Part shown: positions 3,090 through 13,284 of the stretch, one piece after another
Position numbering within the stretch: position 1 is the stretch's first letter
How the letters are laid out: every line of letters starts with the position of its first letter
Notes under the pieces: model-generated
Told to the model about the DNA's origin: nothing
Seen by the model: the letters and a program-made list of their open reading frames with translations, nothing else
Databases searched by the model: none
Assembly (NCBI GenBank): GCA_041690195.1
Contig: JAWLHT010000092.1
Location: forward strand, 1-16,826
Source: Candidatus Latescibacterota bacterium
GTDB taxonomy: Bacteria > Latescibacterota > Latescibacteria > Latescibacterales > Latescibacteraceae
Length of the DNA: 16,826 bases
Direction: 5' to 3'
Made by a program: the position numbers and the translations under genes

Positions 3090-3905
3090 TCAGGCGGTGA
3101 GAACACAGATGGCTTCCGGGACGTTAATCTTGAGGAACAGGCTCTCCGAGACTGAAAAGACATATCCGCTCCCCTCCGGCCCGATGAACCCGGCCGTAAT
3201 GTCCTGGCCGAGCACGATCGAGGCGAACTGGGAGCCCGCGGCCAGGAGTACGCCGCCGGAGCCGATGGTCGCCGACTTGTAAATGCCGCCGGTCACCATG
3301 ACCTGGATGTGCTGAAGTTCGGTCATCATCCCCTGCTGATACCGCCGGAGGAGCCGGTTATACAGTTCCGGGGCCAACGCCAGCGTGTACGGCCCGGGGT
3401 AACCGGCACGGTCAAGTGTCGTTACCGCCTCGATCACGGTTTCAGCAGCGCCCCCCACGGATTCCCAGCCGGAGATCGCCACCGTCTTGCCGCCGGGGAC
3501 ATTCAGAAGACCGTCAACTTTCATGTCGGCGTCACCATTGAAGACGAGGCCGTCTTCCATCCGGGCAACCTCGCGGGCGGCTTCCATTGCGGGACGGATA
3601 TTGAAAGGAACATTCCCGTCTTCAAAGGAGGCGATTTCCCGAACCGGTATCCGGAATTCGGCATGTAGAAACGCGAGCGGCCAGGGAGCGCTTACCGAGA
3701 TGCTCGATCCGGCAGCCTGATTCTCACGCACCGTCCGTTCCTGCATGGGAAGCGTCCGCAGCCCCAAACCATAGGGACCCTCGATGTCCAGCAGTTTACG
3801 ACCGGACAGAATTCCCCGGGCGGCCTCGACCACGGCGCGGTCCAGCACACTCCAAACGTTCTGCTCGAACGGAGCATCGCCTCGATTCAGGTACTTCCCG
3901 CTCAT
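3090..3905 (-). CDS. enc: Family 1 encapsulin nanocompartment shell protein (HK97 fold, linocin M18-like)
   Basis: From my recollection of T. maritima and M. xanthus EncA, the translation shares blocks with them. GRKLLDIEGPYGLG aligns with GRKFVDVEGPYGWEY, EDGLVFNGDADMKVDGLLN with EDEVIFRGCEKSGVKGLLS, GPYTLALAPELYNRL with GPYTLVINTDRWINFL, LGQDITAGFIG with LGQDLSIGYED, and NVPEAICVLTA at the C-terminus with VNPEALILLKF. I prefer the second in-frame ATG (3905) because it has the SD AAAGGGG and gives MSGKYLNRGDAPF..., which aligns with the known N-termini. The ORF-track start at 3926 adds 7 aa and has no SD. The stop is at 3090. Confidence 0.9.
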   Translation of the reverse strand: MSGKYLNRGDAPFEQNVWSVLDRAVVEAARGILSGRKLLDIEGPYGLGLRTLPMQERTVRENQAAGSSISVSAPWPLAFLHAEFRIPVREIASFEDGNVPFNIRPAMEAAREVARMEDGLVFNGDADMKVDGLLNVPGGKTVAISGWESVGGAAETVIEAVTTLDRAGYPGPYTLALAPELYNRLLRRYQQGMMTELQHIQVMVTGGIYKSATIGSGGVLLAAGSQFASIVLGQDITAGFIGPEGSGYVFSVSESLFLKINVPEAICVLTA

Positions 3906-3929
3906 GGGCACCCCTTTCTGGTTCATTGT

Positions 3930-4286
3930 TCATCGCATGCTTCCAACGGTGCTGGGTGTATCGTCCGGGGAACCCACGGCACCGGTTTTCACCGCTTCGG
4001 CAATTTCCTCCACCTCCCGGGCGCCCTTGTCGAGAAGGTCCTGCTCGTCGGAAAGGAGCATGTTCAGGAGCTTTTGGAATTCTCCCACATGCACCCGCTC
4101 CTCGTCGGCTACATCCCGGAGCACCGCCGCGGCAAGCGCGTTGTCGGTGGCGTCGGCGAGCGCCTCATAGAGGTGAACCGCCTCCTCTTCCGCCGAAAGG
4201 CTCAACCTGAGCCCCCTGGTCAGTTCATGGAGAGTGATTTTTCGCCCCGGAACAACTCCGGAGAACGGATTCACGAATTCCGGCAT
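3930..4286 (-). CDS. Encapsulated ferritin-like protein (EncFtn) cargo with a C-terminal targeting peptide ...STVGSMR
   Basis: The ferritin-like four-helix core EEEAVHLYEALADATDNALAAAVLRDVADEERVHVGEFQKLL aligns with the EncFtn pattern EELEAV.WYDQR......DPEL..IL.H.RDEEKEHAAM.LEWL. The C-terminal tail GSPDDTPSTVGSMR matches the Family-1 cargo-loading motif of the (T/G)(V/I)GS(L/M)(K/R) type. The gene ends 3 nt before the encapsulin start codon region (TGA ACA ATG). Start 4286 (MPEFVNPF...) is preferred because of the purine-rich SD GGAAAGGAAAAGG. Alternative starts are 4304 (MGKGKG...) and the ORF-track start 4388. Confidence 0.85.
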   Translation of the reverse strand: MPEFVNPFSGVVPGRKITLHELTRGLRLSLSAEEEAVHLYEALADATDNALAAAVLRDVADEERVHVGEFQKLLNMLLSDEQDLLDKGAREVEEIAEAVKTGAVGSPDDTPSTVGSMR

Positions 4287-4311
4287 ACCTTTTCCTTTCC
4301 CCATACCGGTT

Positions 4312-4327
4312 CCGGAAACAATTCCGG
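4312..4327. promoter_or_regulatory. Perfect 6-4-6 palindrome CCGGAA-acaa-TTCCGG in the EncFtn 5' leader (candidate operator or 5'-UTR hairpin)
   Basis: Exact inverted repeat seen in the sequence, between the candidate -10 and the purine-rich SD of EncFtn. It does not resemble the Fur box; which regulator or RNA function it serves is unknown. Confidence 0.3.
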
Positions 4328-4340
4328 CCGCATATGGTTG

Positions 4341-4349
4341 ATTATGACA
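4341..4349 (-). promoter_or_regulatory. Candidate extended -10 promoter (TGTCATAAT) for the EncFtn-encapsulin transcript; no recognisable -35
   Basis: Minus strand GGGTGTCATAATCAACC: TG-n-CATAAT. It lies 55-60 nt upstream of the EncFtn start, and the palindrome CCGGAA-acaa-TTCCGG (4312-4327) sits between it and the SD. Confidence 0.3.
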
Positions 4350-4463
4350 CCCGCTGCTCCGGGTCGCGCCGAACGCGGCCGGAAACACGCGTCATGATGT
4401 AACCTGCCCGGCCGCATACGACGGGTGCACGGGTACAGCGGTGTCGGCGAGGAATACGACTGA

Positions 4464-4646
4464 TCACATGTTTCCCACAGTGTCCGGAGGAGCGATGGTG
4501 GTGGTATCCGGCATCGGCTCGGTCATGGTAGTATCGGCTCCGTCCATGCCCGGGGCCGGAGTCTCTTCCTGCTGCCCGCAGGCTAAAGCAATGAACGACA
4601 CGAATGTTACGGCGGCCAGTGTCTTCAGAAAATTCTTTCCTCTCAT
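4464..4646 (-). CDS. Small (60 aa) putative secreted lipoprotein, hypothetical. Its C-terminus DTVGNM resembles the EncFtn targeting tail.
   Basis: The internal ATG at 4646 is preceded by a perfect SD GGAGGA with a 7-nt spacer. The N-terminus MRGKNFLKTLAAVTFVSFIALAC|GQQ has n-, h- and lipobox-like regions (ALAC fits the PROSITE-style lipoprotein pattern). The mature part is acidic and Thr/Pro-rich. The extra 17 residues in the ORF-track version (4697) lack an SD. The ORF is small, hence the modest confidence. Confidence 0.4.
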   Translation of the reverse strand: MRGKNFLKTLAAVTFVSFIALACGQQEETPAPGMDGADTTMTEPMPDTTTIAPPDTVGNM

Positions 4647-4662
4647 CTCGATTTCCTCCAAC

Positions 4663-4679
4663 GAACGGATTTCCCGTTC
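4663..4679 (-). promoter_or_regulatory. Hairpin GAACGG-atttc-CCGTTC 4 nt upstream of the SD of the small lipoprotein-like ORF
   Basis: 6-bp inverted repeat abutting GGAGGA (4659..4654). A similar GGAACG-N6-CGTTCC hairpin occurs at 4815-4832 next to an A7/A4 run. Either could be a shared operator motif (core GAACG) or RNA structure. Confidence 0.25.
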
Positions 4680-5024
4680 CAGGTTGACCGGTTTCATGCC
4701 GCGCCGTCAGAAAACCTGATGCAGCATCCCTTTCACCTCGCGGAGCAACGACCCGCCATTGCCGAAAGTTCGCGGCAGTGCTTGAGGTGGAGCGGAGTGG
4801 TTCCCGCCTTCCGGGGAACGGCATGTCGTTCCGCAAAAAAACAAAATAGCGCGGAACATCTTCCTTTTGCCGCCCAGAGCCTCCTTTCACTGAAGGTTCA
4901 TATCACACCACCCATACCGTACACCCGTGCCGGGGAGAACGGCGCCCGGTTTGGCCGCTGAAAACGACCGTGATTCATACCCATCCACCATGACTCGTCA
5001 CCGTATCCATCATACCCGGAATCG

Positions 5025-6035
5025 TCACCTTGGCGGAAGGTTGTTTCCCAATCGCACCGCCTCCCTGACCATCTGATTTGAATATCCCCATTCATTATCG
5101 TACCAGCTCATAACTTTTACGAGATCTCCATCCACCACCTGTGTCATGGTAAGGTCCACGATGGATGCCCGGGGATCCTTGATAATGTCGGAAGAAACGA
5201 TCTGCGCTTCGTTCGCCCCCAGGATACCCCGGTACCGCTCGCTTTCCGCCTCTTCGCGGAAGATGGCGTTGATCTCTTCCGCCGAGGTAGACCGGGAAGC
5301 CAGAATGATGATATCGGAGATGGAGCCCACCGGAATCGGGCCGCGTACCGCCACCCCGTTGAACCGGCCGGCAAGTTGGGGGAGCGCCCGGGTTGTGGCG
5401 ATGGCCGCACCGGTGGATGTGGGAACGAAGTTCTGTGCGCCTGCTCTTCCCCGCCGAAAGCTTTTGGCCGGAGCATCGACAATGGACTGGGAGGAAGTAT
5501 AGGCATGAATAGTGGTCATTATTGCCTTTTTCACTCCTATCCGGCGATCCATGATCTCCATTACCGGGGTGATGCAGTTCGTGGTGCAGCTCGCGCAGGA
5601 CAGTACCCTCACCGAAGAATCGGAACGATCATTCACCCCGTACACAATGGTCTCGACTTCCTCGCTTTTGGACGGTGCCGAGAGGATGACGCTCCGCGCG
5701 CCGGCCCTGATGTGACGCTCCATGTCTTCCCGCCGGGTGAACTTCCCGGTGCATTCCAGAACGATGTCAACCCGGAGATCTCCCCAGGGTAGAGCCTCGG
5801 GATCCTTCTCGTGAAAAACCTTATAGGGCTTGTCATCTATAATCAGGGTATCGTCCTCCGAACGAACCGTCCGCTCATACCGGCCGTACACCGTGTCGAA
5901 TGACAGCAGGTATGCGAGGTTATCCACCGGAACCAGATCGTTGATCGCCACAAGCTCAAGTTCCTGGGTTTCAAGAATTACCTTGAGCGCTGCTCTTCCG
6001 ATTCTCCCCAACCCGTTTATCGCCACTTTTGCCAT
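5025..6035 (-). CDS. gap: Glyceraldehyde-3-phosphate dehydrogenase, type I (NAD(P)-binding GIGRIGR, catalytic SCASCTTNC)
   Basis: MAKVAINGLGRIGR Rossmann motif, catalytic Cys motif ASCTTNC, VPTSTGAA and WYDNEWGYS C-terminal blocks. The true start ATG 6035 is preceded by SD AAGGAGGA with a 7-nt spacer. The 83 upstream residues of the ORF-track version (6284) are junk. Confidence 0.93.
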   Translation of the reverse strand: MAKVAINGLGRIGRAALKVILETQELELVAINDLVPVDNLAYLLSFDTVYGRYERTVRSEDDTLIIDDKPYKVFHEKDPEALPWGDLRVDIVLECTGKFTRREDMERHIRAGARSVILSAPSKSEEVETIVYGVNDRSDSSVRVLSCASCTTNCITPVMEIMDRRIGVKKAIMTTIHAYTSSQSIVDAPAKSFRRGRAGAQNFVPTSTGAAIATTRALPQLAGRFNGVAVRGPIPVGSISDIIILASRSTSAEEINAIFREEAESERYRGILGANEAQIVSSDIIKDPRASIVDLTMTQVVDGDLVKVMSWYDNEWGYSNQMVREAVRLGNNLPPR

Positions 6036-6290
6036 ATATTCCTCCTTGCTTCTCCGATGGTACACAGTGGCTCCGAGAATAAAAAAGCAGGGCATACCGG
6101 GGTTACTCTCCGGCTCCGGTCCTTTCCTTCGTCTTTTCCCTACATCCCTGTTCCTGCTTTTTCGATGCTTCACGTGTGTAACCACCGGAACAATCAACCG
6201 GGCGGGAAATGCGTTTTCACCCGCCCACATTCGAAACCACTCGTCACCTGTCACAGGAAACGACGTATTCCCGCTTCCGGCCATCCAGAC

Positions 6291-7094
6291 TCAGACACTA
6301 TGCTGTACGTAATACTCGTATACCTCGTCCTCGAAGGCGCGGTCGGGCATCCGGGACGGGTCATACTCGGGTCCGAGTTTCACCACGTCTTTCCGGACGG
6401 TGATGAACACCCTGGATTCAGCCCAATCCACCCGGAGAATCATGTGGGGCAGGAGCAGAACATGTTTCCCGGGAAGAAAAGTACGGGTATCCACCGAGAG
6501 ATACCGGATCGCCCAGGTATCGTCGTCTATGATGAGATTTTCGAGATGTCCGATCTCACCGTCAGTGGCCTGGATGGGCCCGCCGATGGTATCCTTGACG
6601 CTCCGGATGTTGAATCCAATCCCTCCTACCGCCTCTGTTCCAGCTTCCCGGCGGTGCTGCTCCTCGGACGAGGGGGAATAATACCCGCGCGCCGCTCCGA
6701 AATAGCCCGGTTTGCGAATCTCCGGATAGCCGGGTTCGCTCACCCCGGGATATTCAGGGTAGCGGTTGATATCCCAATAAACCGGCCACTGGAAGAACGT
6801 ATTGATTTCCTCTTCCTTCTTTCGGGAAACGGGACGGCCGAAATCCACTTCCGGGCTGTTCCGGAGCGCATCCCGAGTCAGAGAGACCCCGAACCGGCGT
6901 GCATTCCAGTCTTTTTCCCCAAGAGCCTCAACGGATAGCAGCGCTTTACGGCTGGAAAACCACGAGTCCATATCAACCCGAAGGTATCGGATCACCCAGT
7001 AGTCCTCATCAAAATACAGATCGTCGACTTTCCCGATCTCTCCCTCTGCCCCATACACGCTGTATCCAATGATATCCTTTGCCTTTCGGAGCAT
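6291..7094 (-). CDS. Tandem PRC-barrel domain protein (two PRC barrels joined by a Tyr/Pro/Gly-rich linker)
   Basis: Two copies of the PRC-barrel signature. The first is KDIIGYSVYGAEGEIGKVDDLYFDEDYWVIRYLRVD. The second is KDTIGGPIQATDGEIGHLENLIIDDDTWAIRYLSVD. The start ATG 7094 (MLRKAKDIIGY) is preceded by SD AAGGAGGG. The ORF-track 5' extension to 7199 is Gly/Arg junk. Confidence 0.8.
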   Translation of the reverse strand: MLRKAKDIIGYSVYGAEGEIGKVDDLYFDEDYWVIRYLRVDMDSWFSSRKALLSVEALGEKDWNARRFGVSLTRDALRNSPEVDFGRPVSRKKEEEINTFFQWPVYWDINRYPEYPGVSEPGYPEIRKPGYFGAARGYYSPSSEEQHRREAGTEAVGGIGFNIRSVKDTIGGPIQATDGEIGHLENLIIDDDTWAIRYLSVDTRTFLPGKHVLLLPHMILRVDWAESRVFITVRKDVVKLGPEYDPSRMPDRAFEDEVYEYYVQHSV

Positions 7095-7272
7095 CAATCC
7101 CTCCTTGCGTGTTCTGAAAGCATCTCGATCACCTGTTCCTCCGATACCCGCACCGCGTCTGATAACCCCCCCGGCGACCAGGGGTCCACCGCGCATCACA
7201 GACGGTCACAATCTTTCTCACAGCCGCTCCCGGGCCGGGTCATGACAACCCCGCATCCGCCGAAGCCAGAGG

Positions 7273-7317
7273 TCACAAGAATGAACCGGGCCAAGACCCG
7301 GGTTACCCCGGCCCGGC
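7273..7317 (-). terminator. Candidate intrinsic terminator for the MarR gene, overlapping its stop codon
   Basis: Minus-strand RNA GGCCGGGCCGGGGUAACCCGGGUCUUGGCCCGG forms a CCGGGCC/GGCCCGG 7-bp GC stem, extendable by two G-U pairs. It is followed by UUCAUUCUUGUG (7 U of 12). Moderate quality. Confidence 0.3.
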
Positions 7318-7809
7318 CGGTGCAGGCGTATCCACGGGAGGGCGTCCGGGTTCCGGTTCGGGCGGATGCTCGTTCTCAAGCTCAAGCATGGCAGCCACCC
7401 GCTGCAATGTGGACAGGATCAGCGATTGCTCCCACTCGTTCAGCTTCCCATATTCCCGAAAAAACCGTTCCTGAAGGAGCGGAGGAGACTTCCGGATGAT
7501 TTCCAGGCCCGCCTCGGTCACCGATAACGGCGAATGAATCAGATCCTCCGCCTCCGCGCTCCGCCGAACCAGTTCACGCTTTTCCAACCGGTCCAGAATA
7601 TCGTTTACCGCGGGCACGGATATTTCCACCGTGGATGCCAGTTCACCGGCCGAAATTCCCGCATGTCTGCTGATTTCGCGCATCAGGAACAGCTGGGGAC
7701 CGGTCAGATTATGCGCGAGGAAGATGTTTCTCGAGTGTACATCGATGGCATGGGTGATCCGCCGAAGCGCAATGAGAACCAGTTCGTTCCGGGTATGGTC
7801 GGCATTCAT
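7303..7809 (-). CDS. MarR-family transcriptional regulator with a Pro-rich C-terminal tail
   Basis: Winged-helix MarR pattern (LTGPQLFLMREISRHAGISAGELASTVEISVPAVNDILDRLEKRELVRR). The ORF track begins at a TTG (7833). ATG 7809 (MNADHTRNELV...) has the SD AGGAAAAGGAA and lies a suitable distance downstream of the -10 of a near-consensus promoter. The tail ENEHPPEPEPGRPPVDTPAPAGPG is unusual for MarR. Confidence 0.85.
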   Translation of the reverse strand: MNADHTRNELVLIALRRITHAIDVHSRNIFLAHNLTGPQLFLMREISRHAGISAGELASTVEISVPAVNDILDRLEKRELVRRSAEAEDLIHSPLSVTEAGLEIIRKSPPLLQERFFREYGKLNEWEQSLILSTLQRVAAMLELENEHPPEPEPGRPPVDTPAPAGPG

Positions 7810-7831
7810 GGAGCAGTTCCTTTTCCTGTTC

Positions 7832-7861
7832 AATATACGCGCGGCACCACCTCTATGTCAA
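7832..7861 (-). promoter_or_regulatory. Sigma70-type promoter of the MarR gene: -35 TTGACA (7861..7856), 18-nt spacer, -10 TATATT (7837..7832)
   Basis: Read on the minus strand: TTGACA-tagaggtggtgccgcgcg-TATATT. It is followed ~20 nt later by the SD and ATG 7809. It sits in an AT-rich divergent intergenic region. Confidence 0.55.
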
Positions 7862-7942
7862 CACTATAAATATATATCAATACTTATCTATATGCAAAAC
7901 GTATACGCTCCGATCAGCCTCAAAATTCATTTATGATTTCAC

Positions 7943-7971
7943 TTGACACCCCAATATGACTGTACTACCTT
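7943..7971 (+). promoter_or_regulatory. Sigma70-type promoter of the GntR gene: -35 TTGACA (7943-7948), 17-nt spacer, -10 TACCTT (7966-7971)
   Basis: The -35 hexamer is consensus. The -10 keeps the T1, A2 and T6 positions. It lies 64 nt upstream of ATG 8035 and is overlapped by two GT-N3-AC boxes. Confidence 0.4.
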
Positions 7972-7987
7972 ATTATTACAGTACCAC
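7962..7987 (+). promoter_or_regulatory. Two direct GTAC(T/C)AC boxes (GT-N3-AC, GntR-type operator half-site pattern) spaced 19 bp apart over the -10 and TSS of the GntR gene
   Basis: tGTACTACc at 7962-7968 and aGTACCACa at 7981-7987. Most GntR-family operators follow (N)GT-Nx-AC(N). A position overlapping its own promoter suggests autoregulation. Confidence 0.3.
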
Positions 7988-8034
7988 AGGAGCCTCCGGA
8001 CACATCGTCCGGAATTCACTGTTCCGAGGCTGCC

Positions 8035-8439
8035 ATGACCGAACATTTCGACCCCAACCGTCCCATCTACCTCCAGGTTATGGAGGAGATCAAGCGCCGC
8101 GCCGTCCGGGGCATCTACCGTCCAGGCGACCTGCTCCCCTCGGTGCGCGACCTGGCCCGGGAAACCGGGGTCAATCCCAACACCATCGCCCGGGTATACC
8201 TCGAACTTGAGCGCGAGGGGTTCATCTCCACCCGGCGAGGCCAGGGGACCTACCTCACCGGGGATGTTTCCCGAATTGACGCGGAGCGCGGCCGTATGGC
8301 GGCCGAGGCGGCCGACCGCTTCATCGCCGAAATCCGCGGTCTAGGGCTCGACGATAGCACCGTCACCGATGTACTCGAACATATGGGGAGCGCGCTCGGC
8401 ACGGCAAAACCCGCGCCCTCAGCCGGGAAGAAGAAATGA
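8035..8439 (+). CDS. GntR-family transcriptional regulator, short YtrA-like subfamily (134 aa)
   Basis: N-terminal GntR wHTH (IYRPGDLLPSVRDLARETGVNPNTIARVYLELEREGFISTRRGQGTYL) followed by a short two-helix C-terminal region typical of YtrA-type regulators. GAGG SD 6 nt upstream of the ATG. Confidence 0.85.
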   Translation: MTEHFDPNRPIYLQVMEEIKRRAVRGIYRPGDLLPSVRDLARETGVNPNTIARVYLELEREGFISTRRGQGTYLTGDVSRIDAERGRMAAEAADRFIAEIRGLGLDDSTVTDVLEHMGSALGTAKPAPSAGKKK

Positions 8440-8548: not shown

Positions 8549-8692
8549 ACAAGAATTTGTGTGGACCACCACAATCGAATCGTTCCGATTCGACTTGAGG
8601 CCCCGGAGAAGCATAATGAACTCCCGGTGAACTGCCCCTCCTGATCTTTCATCGGCTTTTATCATATGCATCACACGCATCATAATTCAGAC
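8549..8692. repeat. Degenerate second copy of the same MITE-like element (about 70-75% identity by eye, same orientation)
   Basis: GGACCACCACAATCGAATCGTTCCGATTCGACTTGAGGCCCCGG (8563-8606) matches GGACCACCCCAATCGAATCGTACCGATTCGGTTGGGGACCCCGG of the complete copy. The right end CGCATCATAATTCAGAC (8676-8692) matches CGCATCCCAATTCAGAC. The left TIR is eroded (aaGAATTtGtgtGG against ctGAATTgGgatgcgcgGG). Internal segments share ttttcatc.g..ttt.atcat blocks. The stem shows compensatory-looking differences between copies. Confidence 0.45.
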
Positions 8693-8736
8693 AGATTATT
8701 ACCGCTGTCAACAGGGATGGCGCAAACATTACCCCC

Positions 8737-9351
8737 TCACCCCATCCACACCCGGACGGCGTCGAGGAGGAATTTGCCGCTGAAGAAGATGAGGAAGACG
8801 CCGCAGACCGCGAGCACGACCTTCTGGAAGATCGCGCCGAAGACCGCGCCGCCCCGGTGTGAGGCCGCGGAGAGGAAATAGAGCCAGACGAGGTCGCAGC
8901 ACCAGTGAACGAGGGCGAAGAGGAGAAACCCCGCGAGGCCGTAGCCCACCGCGCCGGCAATGAGCGTGGCCCCGACTGTGGCCCACCAGACGAGGAAGTA
9001 GGGATTCCAGAGGCTGAGCAGGACGCCGGTGGCGAGGGGCGTCCCGGCGGAGGCGGAAGCCTCGTAGCGGGCGGTCCGGATGCTCCGGAGCATGCCGAGA
9101 CCCATCCAGAAGAGGAAGGCCCCGCCGAGGGCGAACACCGCCATTTTGACTGGGTCCAGGGCGAGCACCCGTCCCGCGCCGAAAAAGATAGCGGCCATGA
9201 GGGGGAATTCCACCAAACCGTGCCCGACCGCGACCATCACCCCGGCATGGGGCGACCGTCCGCCATGCCCGATGGTGACCGCGGTGATGGGCCCGGGCGA
9301 CATCACCCCGGAAAGGGAGATGAGCACGGTCTGGAGAAGAAAAGACAGCAT
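8737..9351 (-). CDS. LysE/RhtB-family amino-acid/metabolite exporter (six-TM translocator)
   Basis: N-terminal ISLSGVMSPGPITAVTIGHG (the SPGP motif of the LysE/RhtB family) and an overall six-helix hydrophobic profile, 204 aa. No clear SD upstream. The gene is bracketed by two MITE-like repeats (listed below). Confidence 0.85.
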   Translation of the reverse strand: MLSFLLQTVLISLSGVMSPGPITAVTIGHGGRSPHAGVMVAVGHGLVEFPLMAAIFFGAGRVLALDPVKMAVFALGGAFLFWMGLGMLRSIRTARYEASASAGTPLATGVLLSLWNPYFLVWWATVGATLIAGAVGYGLAGFLLFALVHWCCDLVWLYFLSAASHRGGAVFGAIFQKVVLAVCGVFLIFFSGKFLLDAVRVWMG

Positions 9352-9390: not shown

Positions 9391-9539
9391 GTCTGAATTG
9401 GGATGCGCGGGACCACCCCAATCGAATCGTACCGATTCGGTTGGGGACCCCGGGATGCATGGGATAAAAAGATGACGAAAGACAAGGCCTTTTCATCAGT
9501 ATTTCATCATGCCTTTATCGCGCGCATCCCAATTCAGAC
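9391..9539. mobile_element. MITE-like non-autonomous element, 149 bp, with perfect 19-bp terminal inverted repeats and an internal 14-bp-stem hairpin
   Basis: Left end GTCTGAATTGGGATGCGCG (9391-9409) is the exact reverse complement of the right end CGCGCATCCCAATTCAGAC (9521-9539). Inside, CCCCAATCGAATCG-tac-CGATTCGGTTGGGG (9416-9446) pairs 13 of 14. No coding capacity. A related copy lies 800 bp away (8549-8692) and a third partial copy at 16570. Confidence 0.55.
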
Positions 9540-9611
9540 AGGCTTTCCCGTTTTTTCGAATCTGATGCAAGATACCCCTTTCTCCTCCGAAACTCAAGGG
9601 GTACCGCACGG

Positions 9612-11201: not shown

Positions 11202-11240
11202 CTTTTCTCTCTTTTCCTCTCTCTGTATCATCTCCGCGTC
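11183..11240. repeat. Polypyrimidine (plus strand) / polypurine (minus strand) tract, ~58 nt, with a pure 24-nt CT run at 11201-11224
   Basis: ttcttctccattcttcccatcttttctctcttttcctctctctgtatcatctccgcg. On the coding (minus) strand it forms a GA-rich leader and the extended SD of the esterase gene, in the 58-nt gap after the beta-helix gene. Confidence 0.4.
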
Positions 11241-11259
11241 TCTGCGAGAAACATCTTTT

Positions 11260-13284
11260 CTATTTCCGCTTTCTCGGCCCCACGTCCCGCAGGTCAATCG
11301 GCTTGAACCCCATCGCGAAGGCCGGAGAGCCGGGGCGGAGGGTGAAATCCCCCTTTTCCGGGTTCACGAAACGAGGGTCGGCGATGCGGGAATGGATGTC
11401 CTGACCGCGGGCCCGCCAGTCCGAAAACGTCCAGGAGGCGAAACGGACCGAGTCCGCCGGAAGGCCGGGATTCCAGTAGAGATTGGAGTCGAGACGGTAA
11501 CGGTCGTCGGACCAGTTGCTCCCGAGGAGGGGGCCTTCGATCCAGTATACGATGTTACGCTCGAAAGTGAAGCTCAGGTGCGGCTCCATGCGGGTGCGGA
11601 TGACCTGCCCGATGAGGGAATAGGCGAAGATGTTGTTCCGTACGGTGTTCATGCGCCCGTAATGCTGGTGGAACCCACCGGACTTGGTGCGGTAGACAAG
11701 GTTGTTCTCGATGAGGATATGGCTGGAGCCCTCGTCGGTGTAGATTCCCCAGCCGCCGTAGCCGTGGGAGGTGATGTCATGGAAGAGATTATTGCGGATG
11801 ACCGTCCCCGGCTGCACCCCGAGGTTGTAGTTCCCGCCCATGTCGGAGAGCATGCCGCGCCCGATGTGGTGGACATGATTGTATTCGATGACGTTCTCCC
11901 CGGCGTTGGTGGGGCCGTACCCCCAGGTCCAGCCGTTGGAGATGCCGGTATAGTAGGTGTCGTGAATGTGGTTGTGAGCGATGCGGTTCTTCCCGCTCTG
12001 AAAGATGATGATGCCGCAGGCGGCGGGATAGACCTCGCCGATGTGGTGGATATGGCAATCGGAGACGGTGTTCCCGAATGTCTTGTCCGGATCGTCCCGT
12101 CGCACCCGTGGTTCACCGATCTTGACCCCGCCCGCGCCCATGTCGCTGATCTCGCACCCGACAATCCGGATGTCCCGGCAGCCCCGGGCGAACTCGACGC
12201 CGTACTTGCCGTGATGGCGGATGGCGCAGTCCTCCAGAACGATATCCTCCGCAAAGTCGCCGCGGATCACTCCGGGGATGTCATAGGCGGCCTGGACATC
12301 CACATAGCCGTGCTCCGGGAGCGTCCAGTCGGAGTGTTCGAAGGCGATACCCTGCAGGCTGATGCGGGACACCCGCGAACCGGACCCGGAATCCCCCTCG
12401 AACCGGACCAGTTCATCGAGCACCGGCGCGACGACTTCGGCATTCTCCATATCCTCGCCGGGACGGGGGATATAGGACAGAACGCCGCTTGTCCGGTCCA
12501 GGAAGAACTCCCCGGGAGCATCCAGCGCTTCGGGGACATTTTCCACCCAGTACCGGGCATCCTTTTCCCGGTTGGAGGGAGCGCACTTGTGGGAGAGCAC
12601 CGCGATGGACGAATCGGCCTCCACGCTCCGGATAAGCATGCGGAACTCGGCCCAGGACTGGAGCGCGATTACCTCGACATCGCTCCGGGCGGCCCATTCC
12701 GGCCGGATGTCGTCGTTCCGGTACCTGAGCCTGGCGCGGTCGTCCATGGTAATCGAGCCGTCCGCCTGAAAGAATTCGCCCGCGTTGGGGATGCGGGCCC
12801 GGACCGCGCGTTTCCCGTTCACAAAGAGCTGACGGAAACGCCACTCTCCCGATTTCACTTCGGGGATGGCGACAGTCCAGACGCCGTTCTCACCCTTTGC
12901 GAACCCGGTGACCTTCCTCCCGCCACTGACCACTGGCTTCTCATTCCGGTATGCGCGCCAGGTCACCGGGGTTTTCTCCGTACCGGAGTCCTCCGGGGTG
13001 AACACCACCGGCTTGGATATTTCGTACACCCCGCCGCGCAGGTATACCGTCACCGGGGCGGCTTTCCCCGAGGCGTTCAGTTCCCGGACCGCCCGCTGCG
13101 CCCGTTCGATGGTCCGGAAGGGGCCGTCGGAAGCGGAAACCTCCGCCCGCGTACCGCTCCAGGCGTCATCGCCGGAGGGTGAGATGTAGAACGAGGCGCC
13201 GGCTGCAGTCCCGGCGAAAAATGCCGCACAGATGCCGAGCACCGCGAGCGCCCGGACCGGAATACCCCTGAAAATCCGGTACAT
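11260..13284 (-). CDS. Secreted right-handed parallel beta-helix (pectate-lyase fold) protein. It has a DUF1565-like N-terminus and is a probable polysaccharide hydrolase or lyase.
   Basis: Sec signal peptide MYRIFRGIPVRALAVLGICAAFFAGTAAGA. The N-terminal motif FYISPSGDDAWSGT...PFRTIERAQRA is typical of beta-helix/DUF1565 proteins. There are multiple PbH1-like repeats (HNHIHDTYYTGIS, EYNHVHHIGRG, RNNLFHDITSHGYGGWGIYTDEGSSHILIENNLVYRT, VRNNIFAYS). SD GGAGGA lies 8 nt upstream of ATG 13284. The specific CAZy family is not assignable by eye. Confidence 0.75.
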   Translation of the reverse strand: MYRIFRGIPVRALAVLGICAAFFAGTAAGASFYISPSGDDAWSGTRAEVSASDGPFRTIERAQRAVRELNASGKAAPVTVYLRGGVYEISKPVVFTPEDSGTEKTPVTWRAYRNEKPVVSGGRKVTGFAKGENGVWTVAIPEVKSGEWRFRQLFVNGKRAVRARIPNAGEFFQADGSITMDDRARLRYRNDDIRPEWAARSDVEVIALQSWAEFRMLIRSVEADSSIAVLSHKCAPSNREKDARYWVENVPEALDAPGEFFLDRTSGVLSYIPRPGEDMENAEVVAPVLDELVRFEGDSGSGSRVSRISLQGIAFEHSDWTLPEHGYVDVQAAYDIPGVIRGDFAEDIVLEDCAIRHHGKYGVEFARGCRDIRIVGCEISDMGAGGVKIGEPRVRRDDPDKTFGNTVSDCHIHHIGEVYPAACGIIIFQSGKNRIAHNHIHDTYYTGISNGWTWGYGPTNAGENVIEYNHVHHIGRGMLSDMGGNYNLGVQPGTVIRNNLFHDITSHGYGGWGIYTDEGSSHILIENNLVYRTKSGGFHQHYGRMNTVRNNIFAYSLIGQVIRTRMEPHLSFTFERNIVYWIEGPLLGSNWSDDRYRLDSNLYWNPGLPADSVRFASWTFSDWRARGQDIHSRIADPRFVNPEKGDFTLRPGSPAFAMGFKPIDLRDVGPRKRK

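Follow-up and report, generated by a model that had tools for sequence, protein, structure and literature searches.

A MarR-headed gene cluster joining a PRC-barrel/GAPDH gene pair to an encapsulated-ferritin locus in Candidatus Latescibacterota

Results

Gene content and promoter of the cluster

The stretch of DNA studied here, called the window, comprises all 16,826 nucleotides of contig JAWLHT010000092.1 from a Candidatus Latescibacterota bacterium (assembly GCA_041690195.1), and the system in question is a cluster of six genes, all on its minus strand (3090–7861), that ends with the genes for an encapsulated ferritin (EncFtn) and an encapsulin shell (Enc). Family searches with Pfam and NCBIfam confirmed both the shared orientation and the gene identities that had been proposed from the letters of this DNA without database searches (hereafter the sequence-only reading). 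From its upstream end, the cluster encodes a MarR-family winged-helix regulator of 168 amino acids (7303–7809; PF01047, E = 2e-12), a tandem PRC-barrel protein of 267 amino acids (6291–7094; PF05239, in two stretches), and a type I, NAD-type phosphorylating glyceraldehyde-3-phosphate dehydrogenase (GAPDH) of 336 amino acids (5025–6035; TIGR01534, 389 bits against a cut-off of 367). These are followed by a small lipoprotein precursor of 60 amino acids without a family match (4464–4646), which is kept in L167 (loci used for comparison carry L numbers), by the EncFtn/Flp cargo protein of 118 amino acids (3930–4286; EncB_fam, 91.4 against 90; Rubrerythrin-like in Pfam), and by a Family 1 encapsulin shell protein of 271 amino acids counted from M8 (3090–3905; PF04454, E = 9e-66; NF041155, 218 bits against 100). 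From MarR to Enc, the intergenic gaps measure 208, 255, 378, 177, and 24 nt. Start codons were corrected by comparison with relatives, giving M8 for Enc, whose homologs align from residue 8, MPEFVNPF for EncFtn, and MRGKNF (ATG 4646) for the small open reading frame (ORF); the MarR ORF extends to a TTG at 7833, and the ATG at 7809, which agrees with the orthologs, is most likely its start. Antisense ORFs (e.g. 6057–6938 on the plus strand) have no Pfam match and were treated as artifacts of GC-rich DNA, and no Rfam family matched anywhere in the cluster region, spacers included, even at E ≤ 1. The G+C content of positions 4500–8000 is 0.55–0.58, compared with 0.60–0.67 in the flanking genes, a difference that may reflect either transfer or gene-specific composition.

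The cluster is headed by a sigma-70-like promoter, TTGACA-18-TATATT (7832–7861, minus strand), located 22 nt before the MarR ATG. It matches the consensus at 11 of 12 positions, a score that no other site in the window reaches and for which block shuffles give an expectation of 0.09; L001 and L005 share its position, a core (TTATAnTGTTnnCA..GAG), and the AT-rich tract that precedes it (approximately 7862–7900). The near-consensus promoter that the sequence-only reading had placed ahead of MarR is thus borne out, and the strong Shine-Dalgarno sites that it had ascribed to the downstream genes are visible as AAGGAGG-type sequences before the PRC, GAPDH, and small ORF genes.

The gaps had also been described as holding hairpins and possible promoters, and of this only a part held. 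The spacer ahead of EncFtn (4287–4463) is structured, with a folding z score of −3.46 and only 1 of 200 shuffles equally stable, and the 255-nt PRC-GAPDH spacer (6036–6290), with a GGGCGGG...CCCGCCC hairpin inside, is marginal (z = −1.83; 9 of 200). The other two spacers, including the MarR-PRC one with its hairpin, did not fold significantly better than shuffles, and a consensus scan found no sigma-70-like promoter inside the internal gaps at ≥9/12. The MarR stop codon is covered by a GC-rich hairpin of 14 pairs (7284–7318), terminator-like with a weak T tail.

The structured spacer includes an imperfect palindrome or hairpin at 4301–4337 (CCATATGCGGCCGGAATTGTTTCCGGAACCGGTATGG), a leader element that had been linked to the MarR protein. 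Nothing connects the two: as judged by eye, the palindrome has no evident motif in common with the MarR promoter region, and it is absent from L001, L005, and L168; a role as a MarR operator thus finds no support. In L167, a hairpin of another sequence takes its place, which is more in keeping with an RNA hairpin than with a DNA operator.

The MarR regulator

The regulator contains the winged helix-turn-helix of its family (PF01047, 47 bits against 24.6; PF12802, 41 bits against 27) and reaches the cut-off of no NCBIfam equivalog, its closest weak matches being ligand-binding MarRs such as HpaR and BilQ. The proteins of the window, L001, and L005 have no cysteine; because every ortholog is cysteine-free, and with the OhrR model giving 23 bits against 200, a thiol-based oxidant sensor of the OhrR/MgrA type was ruled out. 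MarR is the obvious candidate for a repressor acting at the conserved promoter, and it would control the downstream genes in response to an inducing signal.

Encapsulin, EncFtn, and the small lipoprotein

Only 24 nt separate the EncFtn gene from the Family 1 shell gene downstream of it. The EncFtn protein scores marginally with NF058679 (91.4 against 90) and below the cut-off with TIGR04535 (61.6 against 125); the ferroxidase motifs EEEAVHLY and EERVH are present in all orthologs, and the C terminus, PSTVGSMR in the window and T[VI]G[SG]L[RK][ED] in orthologs, is the targeting peptide of Family 1 cargo. In a neighbor-joining tree, the window encapsulin groups with those of L167, L005/L006, and L168. 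By its sequence features, EncFtn-Enc is an ordinary Family 1 system with Flp/EncFtn cargo, for which shell assembly and iron mineralization are predicted. Such systems serve in iron mineralization and storage, with a role in oxidative stress (PMC8346489).

The small lipoprotein (MRGKNF...IALAC|GQQEE...) occurs only in the window and L167 and is absent from L001, L005, L006, and L168. Because it is 70% identical to the L167 protein, with an in-frame indel and a ratio of nonsynonymous to synonymous substitution rates (dN/dS) of 0.21, the small ORF is a real gene, encoding a 60-amino-acid lipoprotein precursor and inserted in the sub-lineage of the window and L167. The protein ends in PPDTVGNM, which resembles the PSTVGSMR of EncFtn (15 of 21 nt identical). 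DTVGNM was rejected as a second targeting peptide on account of the DTTGNM of L167 and the lipoprotein signal peptide, and the likeness is probably coincidental.

GAPDH and the tandem PRC-barrel protein

Alignment to Thermotoga maritima GAPDH (1hdg) showed the catalytic Cys149, His176, and Arg231 and the residue Asp32 to be intact, with SCASCTTNC, HAYT, RRGRA, and AVRGP aligned to their counterparts and the phosphate-site arginines kept; Asp32 (in NDL) indicates NAD specificity. An ArsJ-associated GAPDH was dismissed (NF033735, 342 bits, below the cut-off of 450; no ArsJ-like transporter gene in the cluster). The enzyme belongs to a clade that is ~70% identical across phyla and carries the NCBI name type I GAPDH in many metagenome-assembled genomes (MAGs). 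Exact-sequence look-ups of the window GAPDH and encapsulin gave no hit, although both proteins are present in the homolog database (P0001 and P0121). Because the C-terminal tails vary among orthologs and, unlike TVGSL, form no targeting peptide, GAPDH was not retained as encapsulin cargo.

The AlphaFold2 model of the PRC-barrel protein has a mean confidence score (pLDDT) of 81, with both barrels at ~90 or higher and a disordered linker of ~50 residues between them, and its best matches in the Protein Data Bank are the tandem-PRC proteins CdpB1/CdpB2 and reaction-center H subunits. The PRC gene directly adjoins a GAPDH gene of the same clade in the Latescibacterota loci, in L103, where the tandem PRC gene comes directly before GAPDH, and in L151/L162 (one organism), where it comes directly after. 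Because of this recurrent adjacency and the CdpB1/B2-like scaffold fold of the model, a protein partnership between PRC and GAPDH is the simplest inference, and the two would be expected to interact physically. From the PRC side, a general association was rejected, the three sampled contexts of PRC homologs all being without GAPDH.

Synteny in close relatives

Comparison of synteny across related genomes, which the sequence-only reading had put forward as a check, gave a positive answer. Three loci have MarR-PRC-GAPDH-EncFtn-Enc in the same order as the window: L001, from a Latescibacterota MAG and also with the divergent GntR gene described below, L005 (a JGI metagenome), and L006 (a Logan assembly). 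Their GAPDHs are 81–82% identical to that of the window, and L005 and L006 are near-identical to each other. Partial orders are seen in L168, which has GAPDH-EncFtn-Enc on a 2.7-kb contig, and in L167, the closest relative by encapsulin (76% identity), which has lipoprotein-EncFtn-Enc in common with the window. Protein identities of 66–82% among the syntenic loci represent real divergence, and the signature of an operon, namely co-directional genes whose order is conserved in diverged relatives, was found in L001, L005/L006, and L168. The packing in L001 and L005 is tighter than in the window, with 8–9 nt from the PRC stop codon to the GAPDH ATG and ~75–85 nt between GAPDH and EncFtn; because of these spacers, the ancestral state looks like a compact operon, from which the long spacers of the window would be derived. 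The cluster is predicted to be co-transcribed.

Occurrence of the GAPDH-EncFtn linkage in other lineages

From the encapsulin side, 80 EncFtn-Enc loci were drawn from GTDB representative genomes of other species (encapsulin identity 45–52%), including Anaerolineae, Planctomycetota, Methanomicrobiales, and others; none of the GTDB representatives has a relative of the window encapsulin above 52% identity. A MarR homolog was found in one of these loci (L015). A general association between GAPDH and encapsulin was rejected, since 79 of the 80 have no GAPDH within 10 kb. L054 places tandem PRC, GAPDH, and EncFtn-Enc within 8 kb amid Fpg, DUF2267, and phosphoribosyltransferase genes. The full row in this Anaerolineales locus (L054:1346–9528) is co-directional and comprises Fpg, DUF72, tandem PRC, DUF2267, a phosphoribosyl pyrophosphate synthetase-like gene, a metallo-β-lactamase-fold gene, three phosphoribosyltransferases, GAPDH, archaemetzincin, and EncFtn-Enc, and from its gene content it looks like a dormancy or stress island.

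From the GAPDH side, 80 metagenome loci with GAPDHs of 58–71% identity were compared. The classical gap-pgk pair occurs in only four of them, and other recurrent neighbors are flavoprotein disulfide reductases (nine loci), transaldolase (six), DUF488 (six), HhH-GPD glycosylases (five), OsmC (three), and glucose-6-phosphate dehydrogenase (three). The link of GAPDH to stress clusters that the sequence-only reading had suggested is supported by GAPDHs of the same clade in clusters for defense against reactive oxygen species (ROS). For example, L088 has the co-directional series OsmC-GAPDH-desulfoferrodoxin-ORF-EncFtn-Enc-flavoprotein reductase (Pyr_redox_2), L099 has GAPDH-OsmC-EncFtn, in which EncFtn carries a targeting peptide, and the P0009 GAPDH (75% identical; L002–L004) stands in the series desulfoferrodoxin-rubrerythrin-POR-GAPDH-POR-flavodiiron protein-DJ-1, with an encapsulin gene 4 kb upstream. 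In the neighbor-joining tree, L003, L088, and L054 have their encapsulins in different subclades, all apart from the Latescibacterota clade, and for this reason the several GAPDH-EncFtn linkages probably do not go back to one inherited event.

Two of these contexts have further peculiarities. At L002:1482–5214, L003:3391–7123, and L004:2792–6524, the GAPDH gene separates the alpha/gamma from the beta subunit genes of a pyruvate/2-oxoacid:ferredoxin oxidoreductase, in a block that also includes desulfoferrodoxin, rubrerythrin, flavodiiron protein, DJ-1/PfpI, and hemerythrin genes, an unusual site for a glycolytic gene. In L099, the EncFtn gene (11228–11566; ETTIGSLKN) has no adjoining encapsulin gene and is followed by a glucose/sorbosone dehydrogenase-like gene; the shell gene may be elsewhere in the genome.

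Flanking regions

The left flank of the cluster is occupied by a DUF748/YhdP-like (AsmA-like) gene of at least 850 codons on the minus strand (1 to ~2540), which runs off the contig end and is therefore not in the list of ORFs, and the divergent gene upstream of MarR encodes a short GntR/YtrA-like regulator (8035–8439). Just upstream of the latter, at ~7958–7986, is an operator-like palindrome of the GntR/YtrA type (GGTACTGTA..N..TACAGT), and a similar one occurs in L001 at ~2256–2290. The GntR gene of L001 is followed by ABC-ATPase and membrane-protein genes, and tblastn found no trace of either in the window. The remainder of the contig encodes a LysE exporter and SASA and GH141-like enzymes. 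One flank protein has a sub-threshold match to a type IX secretion system sorting domain (20.1 bits against a cut-off of 27); weak as it is, this match agrees with the Candidatus Latescibacterota label of the closest homologs. The LysE-type exporter gene (8737–9351, minus strand) lies between two direct copies of ~130 nt (8563–8694 and 9410–9541), which are ~84% identical, 847 nt apart, and each equipped with a palindrome, CAATCGAATCG..CGATTCG; a 22-nt inverted repeat (9391–9412/9518–9539) borders the second of them. Neither copy has an Rfam match, and the repeats could be a duplicated regulatory leader or a small mobile element.

Discussion

We give about even credence to the explanation that the cluster is a lineage-specific stress operon of Latescibacterota coupling a PRC-GAPDH pair to an iron-sequestering nanocompartment. 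Two modules would be joined behind one MarR-controlled promoter: a tandem PRC-barrel protein with a type I GAPDH, a pair that recurs in other phyla, and a standard Family 1 system, in which EncFtn would be loaded via its C-terminal TVGS(L/M)R and oxidize Fe2+ while the shell would store the mineral. A ligand or other signal acting on MarR would lift repression at the 7861–7832 promoter, and induction would supply the iron-sequestering compartment, leading to less Fenton chemistry, along with fresh GAPDH and its PRC partner, which would restore triose-phosphate flux after oxidant loss of the catalytic cysteine. In the sub-lineage of the window, the operon would have loosened, a 255-nt spacer taking the place of one of 8–9 nt and the lipoprotein gene and structured leader being inserted before EncFtn, and with this spacing transcription may now be split into units.

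The proposal of the sequence-only reading that the island responds to oxidants or iron fared unevenly: comparative genomics partly supports a stress island, but MarR is cysteine-free, and the responsiveness itself is still inferred. Several observations weigh against a stress operon. The long spacers, the hairpin after MarR, and the failure to detect internal promoters make the operon structure in the window uncertain, and MarR is cysteine-free and matches no characterized subfamily. Family searches found no other ROS-defense gene in the 16.8-kb window. A GAPDH of the same clade lies within 10 kb in only 1 of the 80 EncFtn-Enc loci (L054), which is about what chance would give, and PRC homologs are also found in unrelated surroundings (all three sampled without GAPDH). 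Furthermore, the clade to which the related loci belong may be no more than a shallow one, and the GAPDH looks fully canonical and is highly conserved across phyla, as expected of a housekeeping enzyme.

It is possible, if somewhat doubtful, that this is a housekeeping and possibly the only gap gene of the organism, with a gene order neutrally kept in a shallow clade and no coupling to the nanocompartment. The enzyme passes the type I equivalog with all catalytic residues kept, its clade is ~70% identical across phyla under the name type I GAPDH in many MAGs, and its gene has a strong Shine-Dalgarno site; the near-chance count of one in 80 and the distances of 177–378 nt between the window genes speak the same way. 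However, the spacers of 8–9 nt (PRC-GAPDH) and ~75–85 nt (GAPDH-EncFtn) in L001/L005 point to co-transcription, GAPDH and EncFtn come together again in three or four other lineages with non-sister encapsulins, the PRC-GAPDH adjacency recurs independently, and the canonical gap-pgk context is found in only 4 of the 80 clade members.

Two other explanations were weighed. An island devoted to iron homeostasis or responsive to a ligand, in which MarR senses a small molecule or metal, GAPDH provides NADH or moonlights in iron handling, and PRC acts as an adaptor, appears unlikely. Ligand sensing is favored by the absence of redox-active cysteines from MarR and by its weak resemblance to HpaR and BilQ, and EncFtn-Enc systems are primarily concerned with iron mineralization and storage (PMC8346489), but the annotated parts of the window (13.3–14.1 kb is unannotated) yielded no iron-uptake, Fur/DtxR, or siderophore gene, no Fur-box-like sequence was noticed by eye, no search having been made for one, and the contexts of related GAPDHs are those of ROS defense (OsmC, desulfoferrodoxin, rubrerythrin, flavodiiron protein), not of iron transport. 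That GAPDH, PRC, or both reside physically on the nanocompartment, as noncanonical cargo or docked to the shell, is most improbable. Archaeal Family 4 A-domain systems do have a GAPDH gene directly before a shell-related gene (PMC8346489), tandem PRC proteins are protein-binding scaffolds, and the genes are tightly linked in relatives. On the other hand, the C termini of GAPDH and PRC are unlike T[VI]GSL[RK], the GAPDH tails vary between orthologs, and the association is absent from 79 of the 80 other EncFtn-Enc loci. Moreover, a GAPDH tetramer, at ~145 kDa, would find little space inside a T=1 EncFtn shell.

The sequence-only reading had regarded an association of GAPDH with a nanocompartment as undescribed, which is true for Family 1 but not for the A-domain encapsulins of Family 4. 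In the large encapsulin census (Andreas & Giessen 2021; PMC8346489), GAPDH appears only alongside the Family 4B A-domain systems of Pyrococcus and Thermococcus, and OsmC alongside Family 4A. The same survey does not mention MarR and does not name GAPDH as an accessory of Family 1 Flp systems; the accessible part of its Family 1 neighborhood table lists no PF00044, only two distant PF05239 entries, and no Latescibacteria (PMC8346489). Our literature search found no paper combining encapsulin with Latescibacteria and none combining PRC-barrel with encapsulin; PRC-barrel and GAPDH occur together in a single paper, on a purple sulfur bacterium growing on pyrite, the abstract of which is not about a PRC-GAPDH gene pair. 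Like the Family 4B operons, the cluster has a GAPDH gene upstream of an encapsulin-family gene in the same (here putative) operon. Those systems, however, consist of a truncated A-domain only, with no ferritin cargo and an archaeal gluconeogenic GAPDH, whereas the window encodes a full-length 271-amino-acid Family 1 shell, EncFtn cargo, and a bacterial type I GAPDH, with EncFtn between the GAPDH and shell genes, and it was not assigned to Family 4 for these reasons. The core itself resembles the Family 1 EncFtn systems of Rhodospirillum rubrum, Haliangium ochraceum, and T. maritima in having EncFtn directly upstream of the shell gene, ExxH motifs, and the TVGS(L/M)R peptide, but differs in being preceded by co-directional MarR, tandem PRC, and type I GAPDH genes. 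This accessory block is an undescribed, lineage-restricted variant.

As a regulatory analogy, the SoxRS regulon of Escherichia coli includes the central-metabolism enzymes encoded by zwf, fumC, and acnA. In both cases, a transcription factor is tied to ROS or iron defense and to a central-carbon enzyme with an oxidant-sensitive housekeeping form, although here the factor is a cysteine-free MarR and the genes are clustered rather than dispersed. With regard to PRC-barrel genes, members of stress regulons have been reported, namely AvaK of Anabaena and one belonging to the EcfG regulon of Sphingomonas (PMC9804601; PMC6599016). Both differ from the window protein in domain architecture, AvaK combining PRC with DUF2382 instead of a second PRC barrel. 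The archaeal CdpB1/CdpB2 proteins do have two PRC barrels in one chain but are only 11–13% identical in sequence, and no cell-division genes lie near the window PRC. The papers on CdpB, AvaK, and EcfG describe no GAPDH neighbor, whereas GAPDH is the recurrent neighbor of tandem PRC here.

These comparisons raise a broader and rather improbable conjecture, namely that tandem PRC and the GAPDHs of this clade constitute a dedicated module of two proteins, in which PRC is a binding partner or regulator of the enzyme, and that this module has been repeatedly recruited by anaerobes and microaerophiles of several phyla into operons for oxidative stress and iron sequestration and has become a fixed accessory of the encapsulated-ferritin nanocompartment in Latescibacterota. 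If this were true, iron sequestration would be tied functionally to triose-phosphate flux in central carbon metabolism, a coupling undescribed for Family 1 encapsulins.

Encapsulated-ferritin compartments are well characterized as two-gene systems, and little is known about their regulation or their wiring to other processes of the cell. The immediate impact of this cluster is modest because the organisms are uncultured and the evidence is that of gene neighborhood. It offers a concrete candidate regulator and operator region for EncFtn-Enc, and it lends support to the notion that anaerobes group spare copies of oxidant-labile enzymes of central metabolism with their ROS and iron defenses. The most transferable lead is the PRC-GAPDH pair, which may give the widespread tandem PRC-barrel family its first partner.

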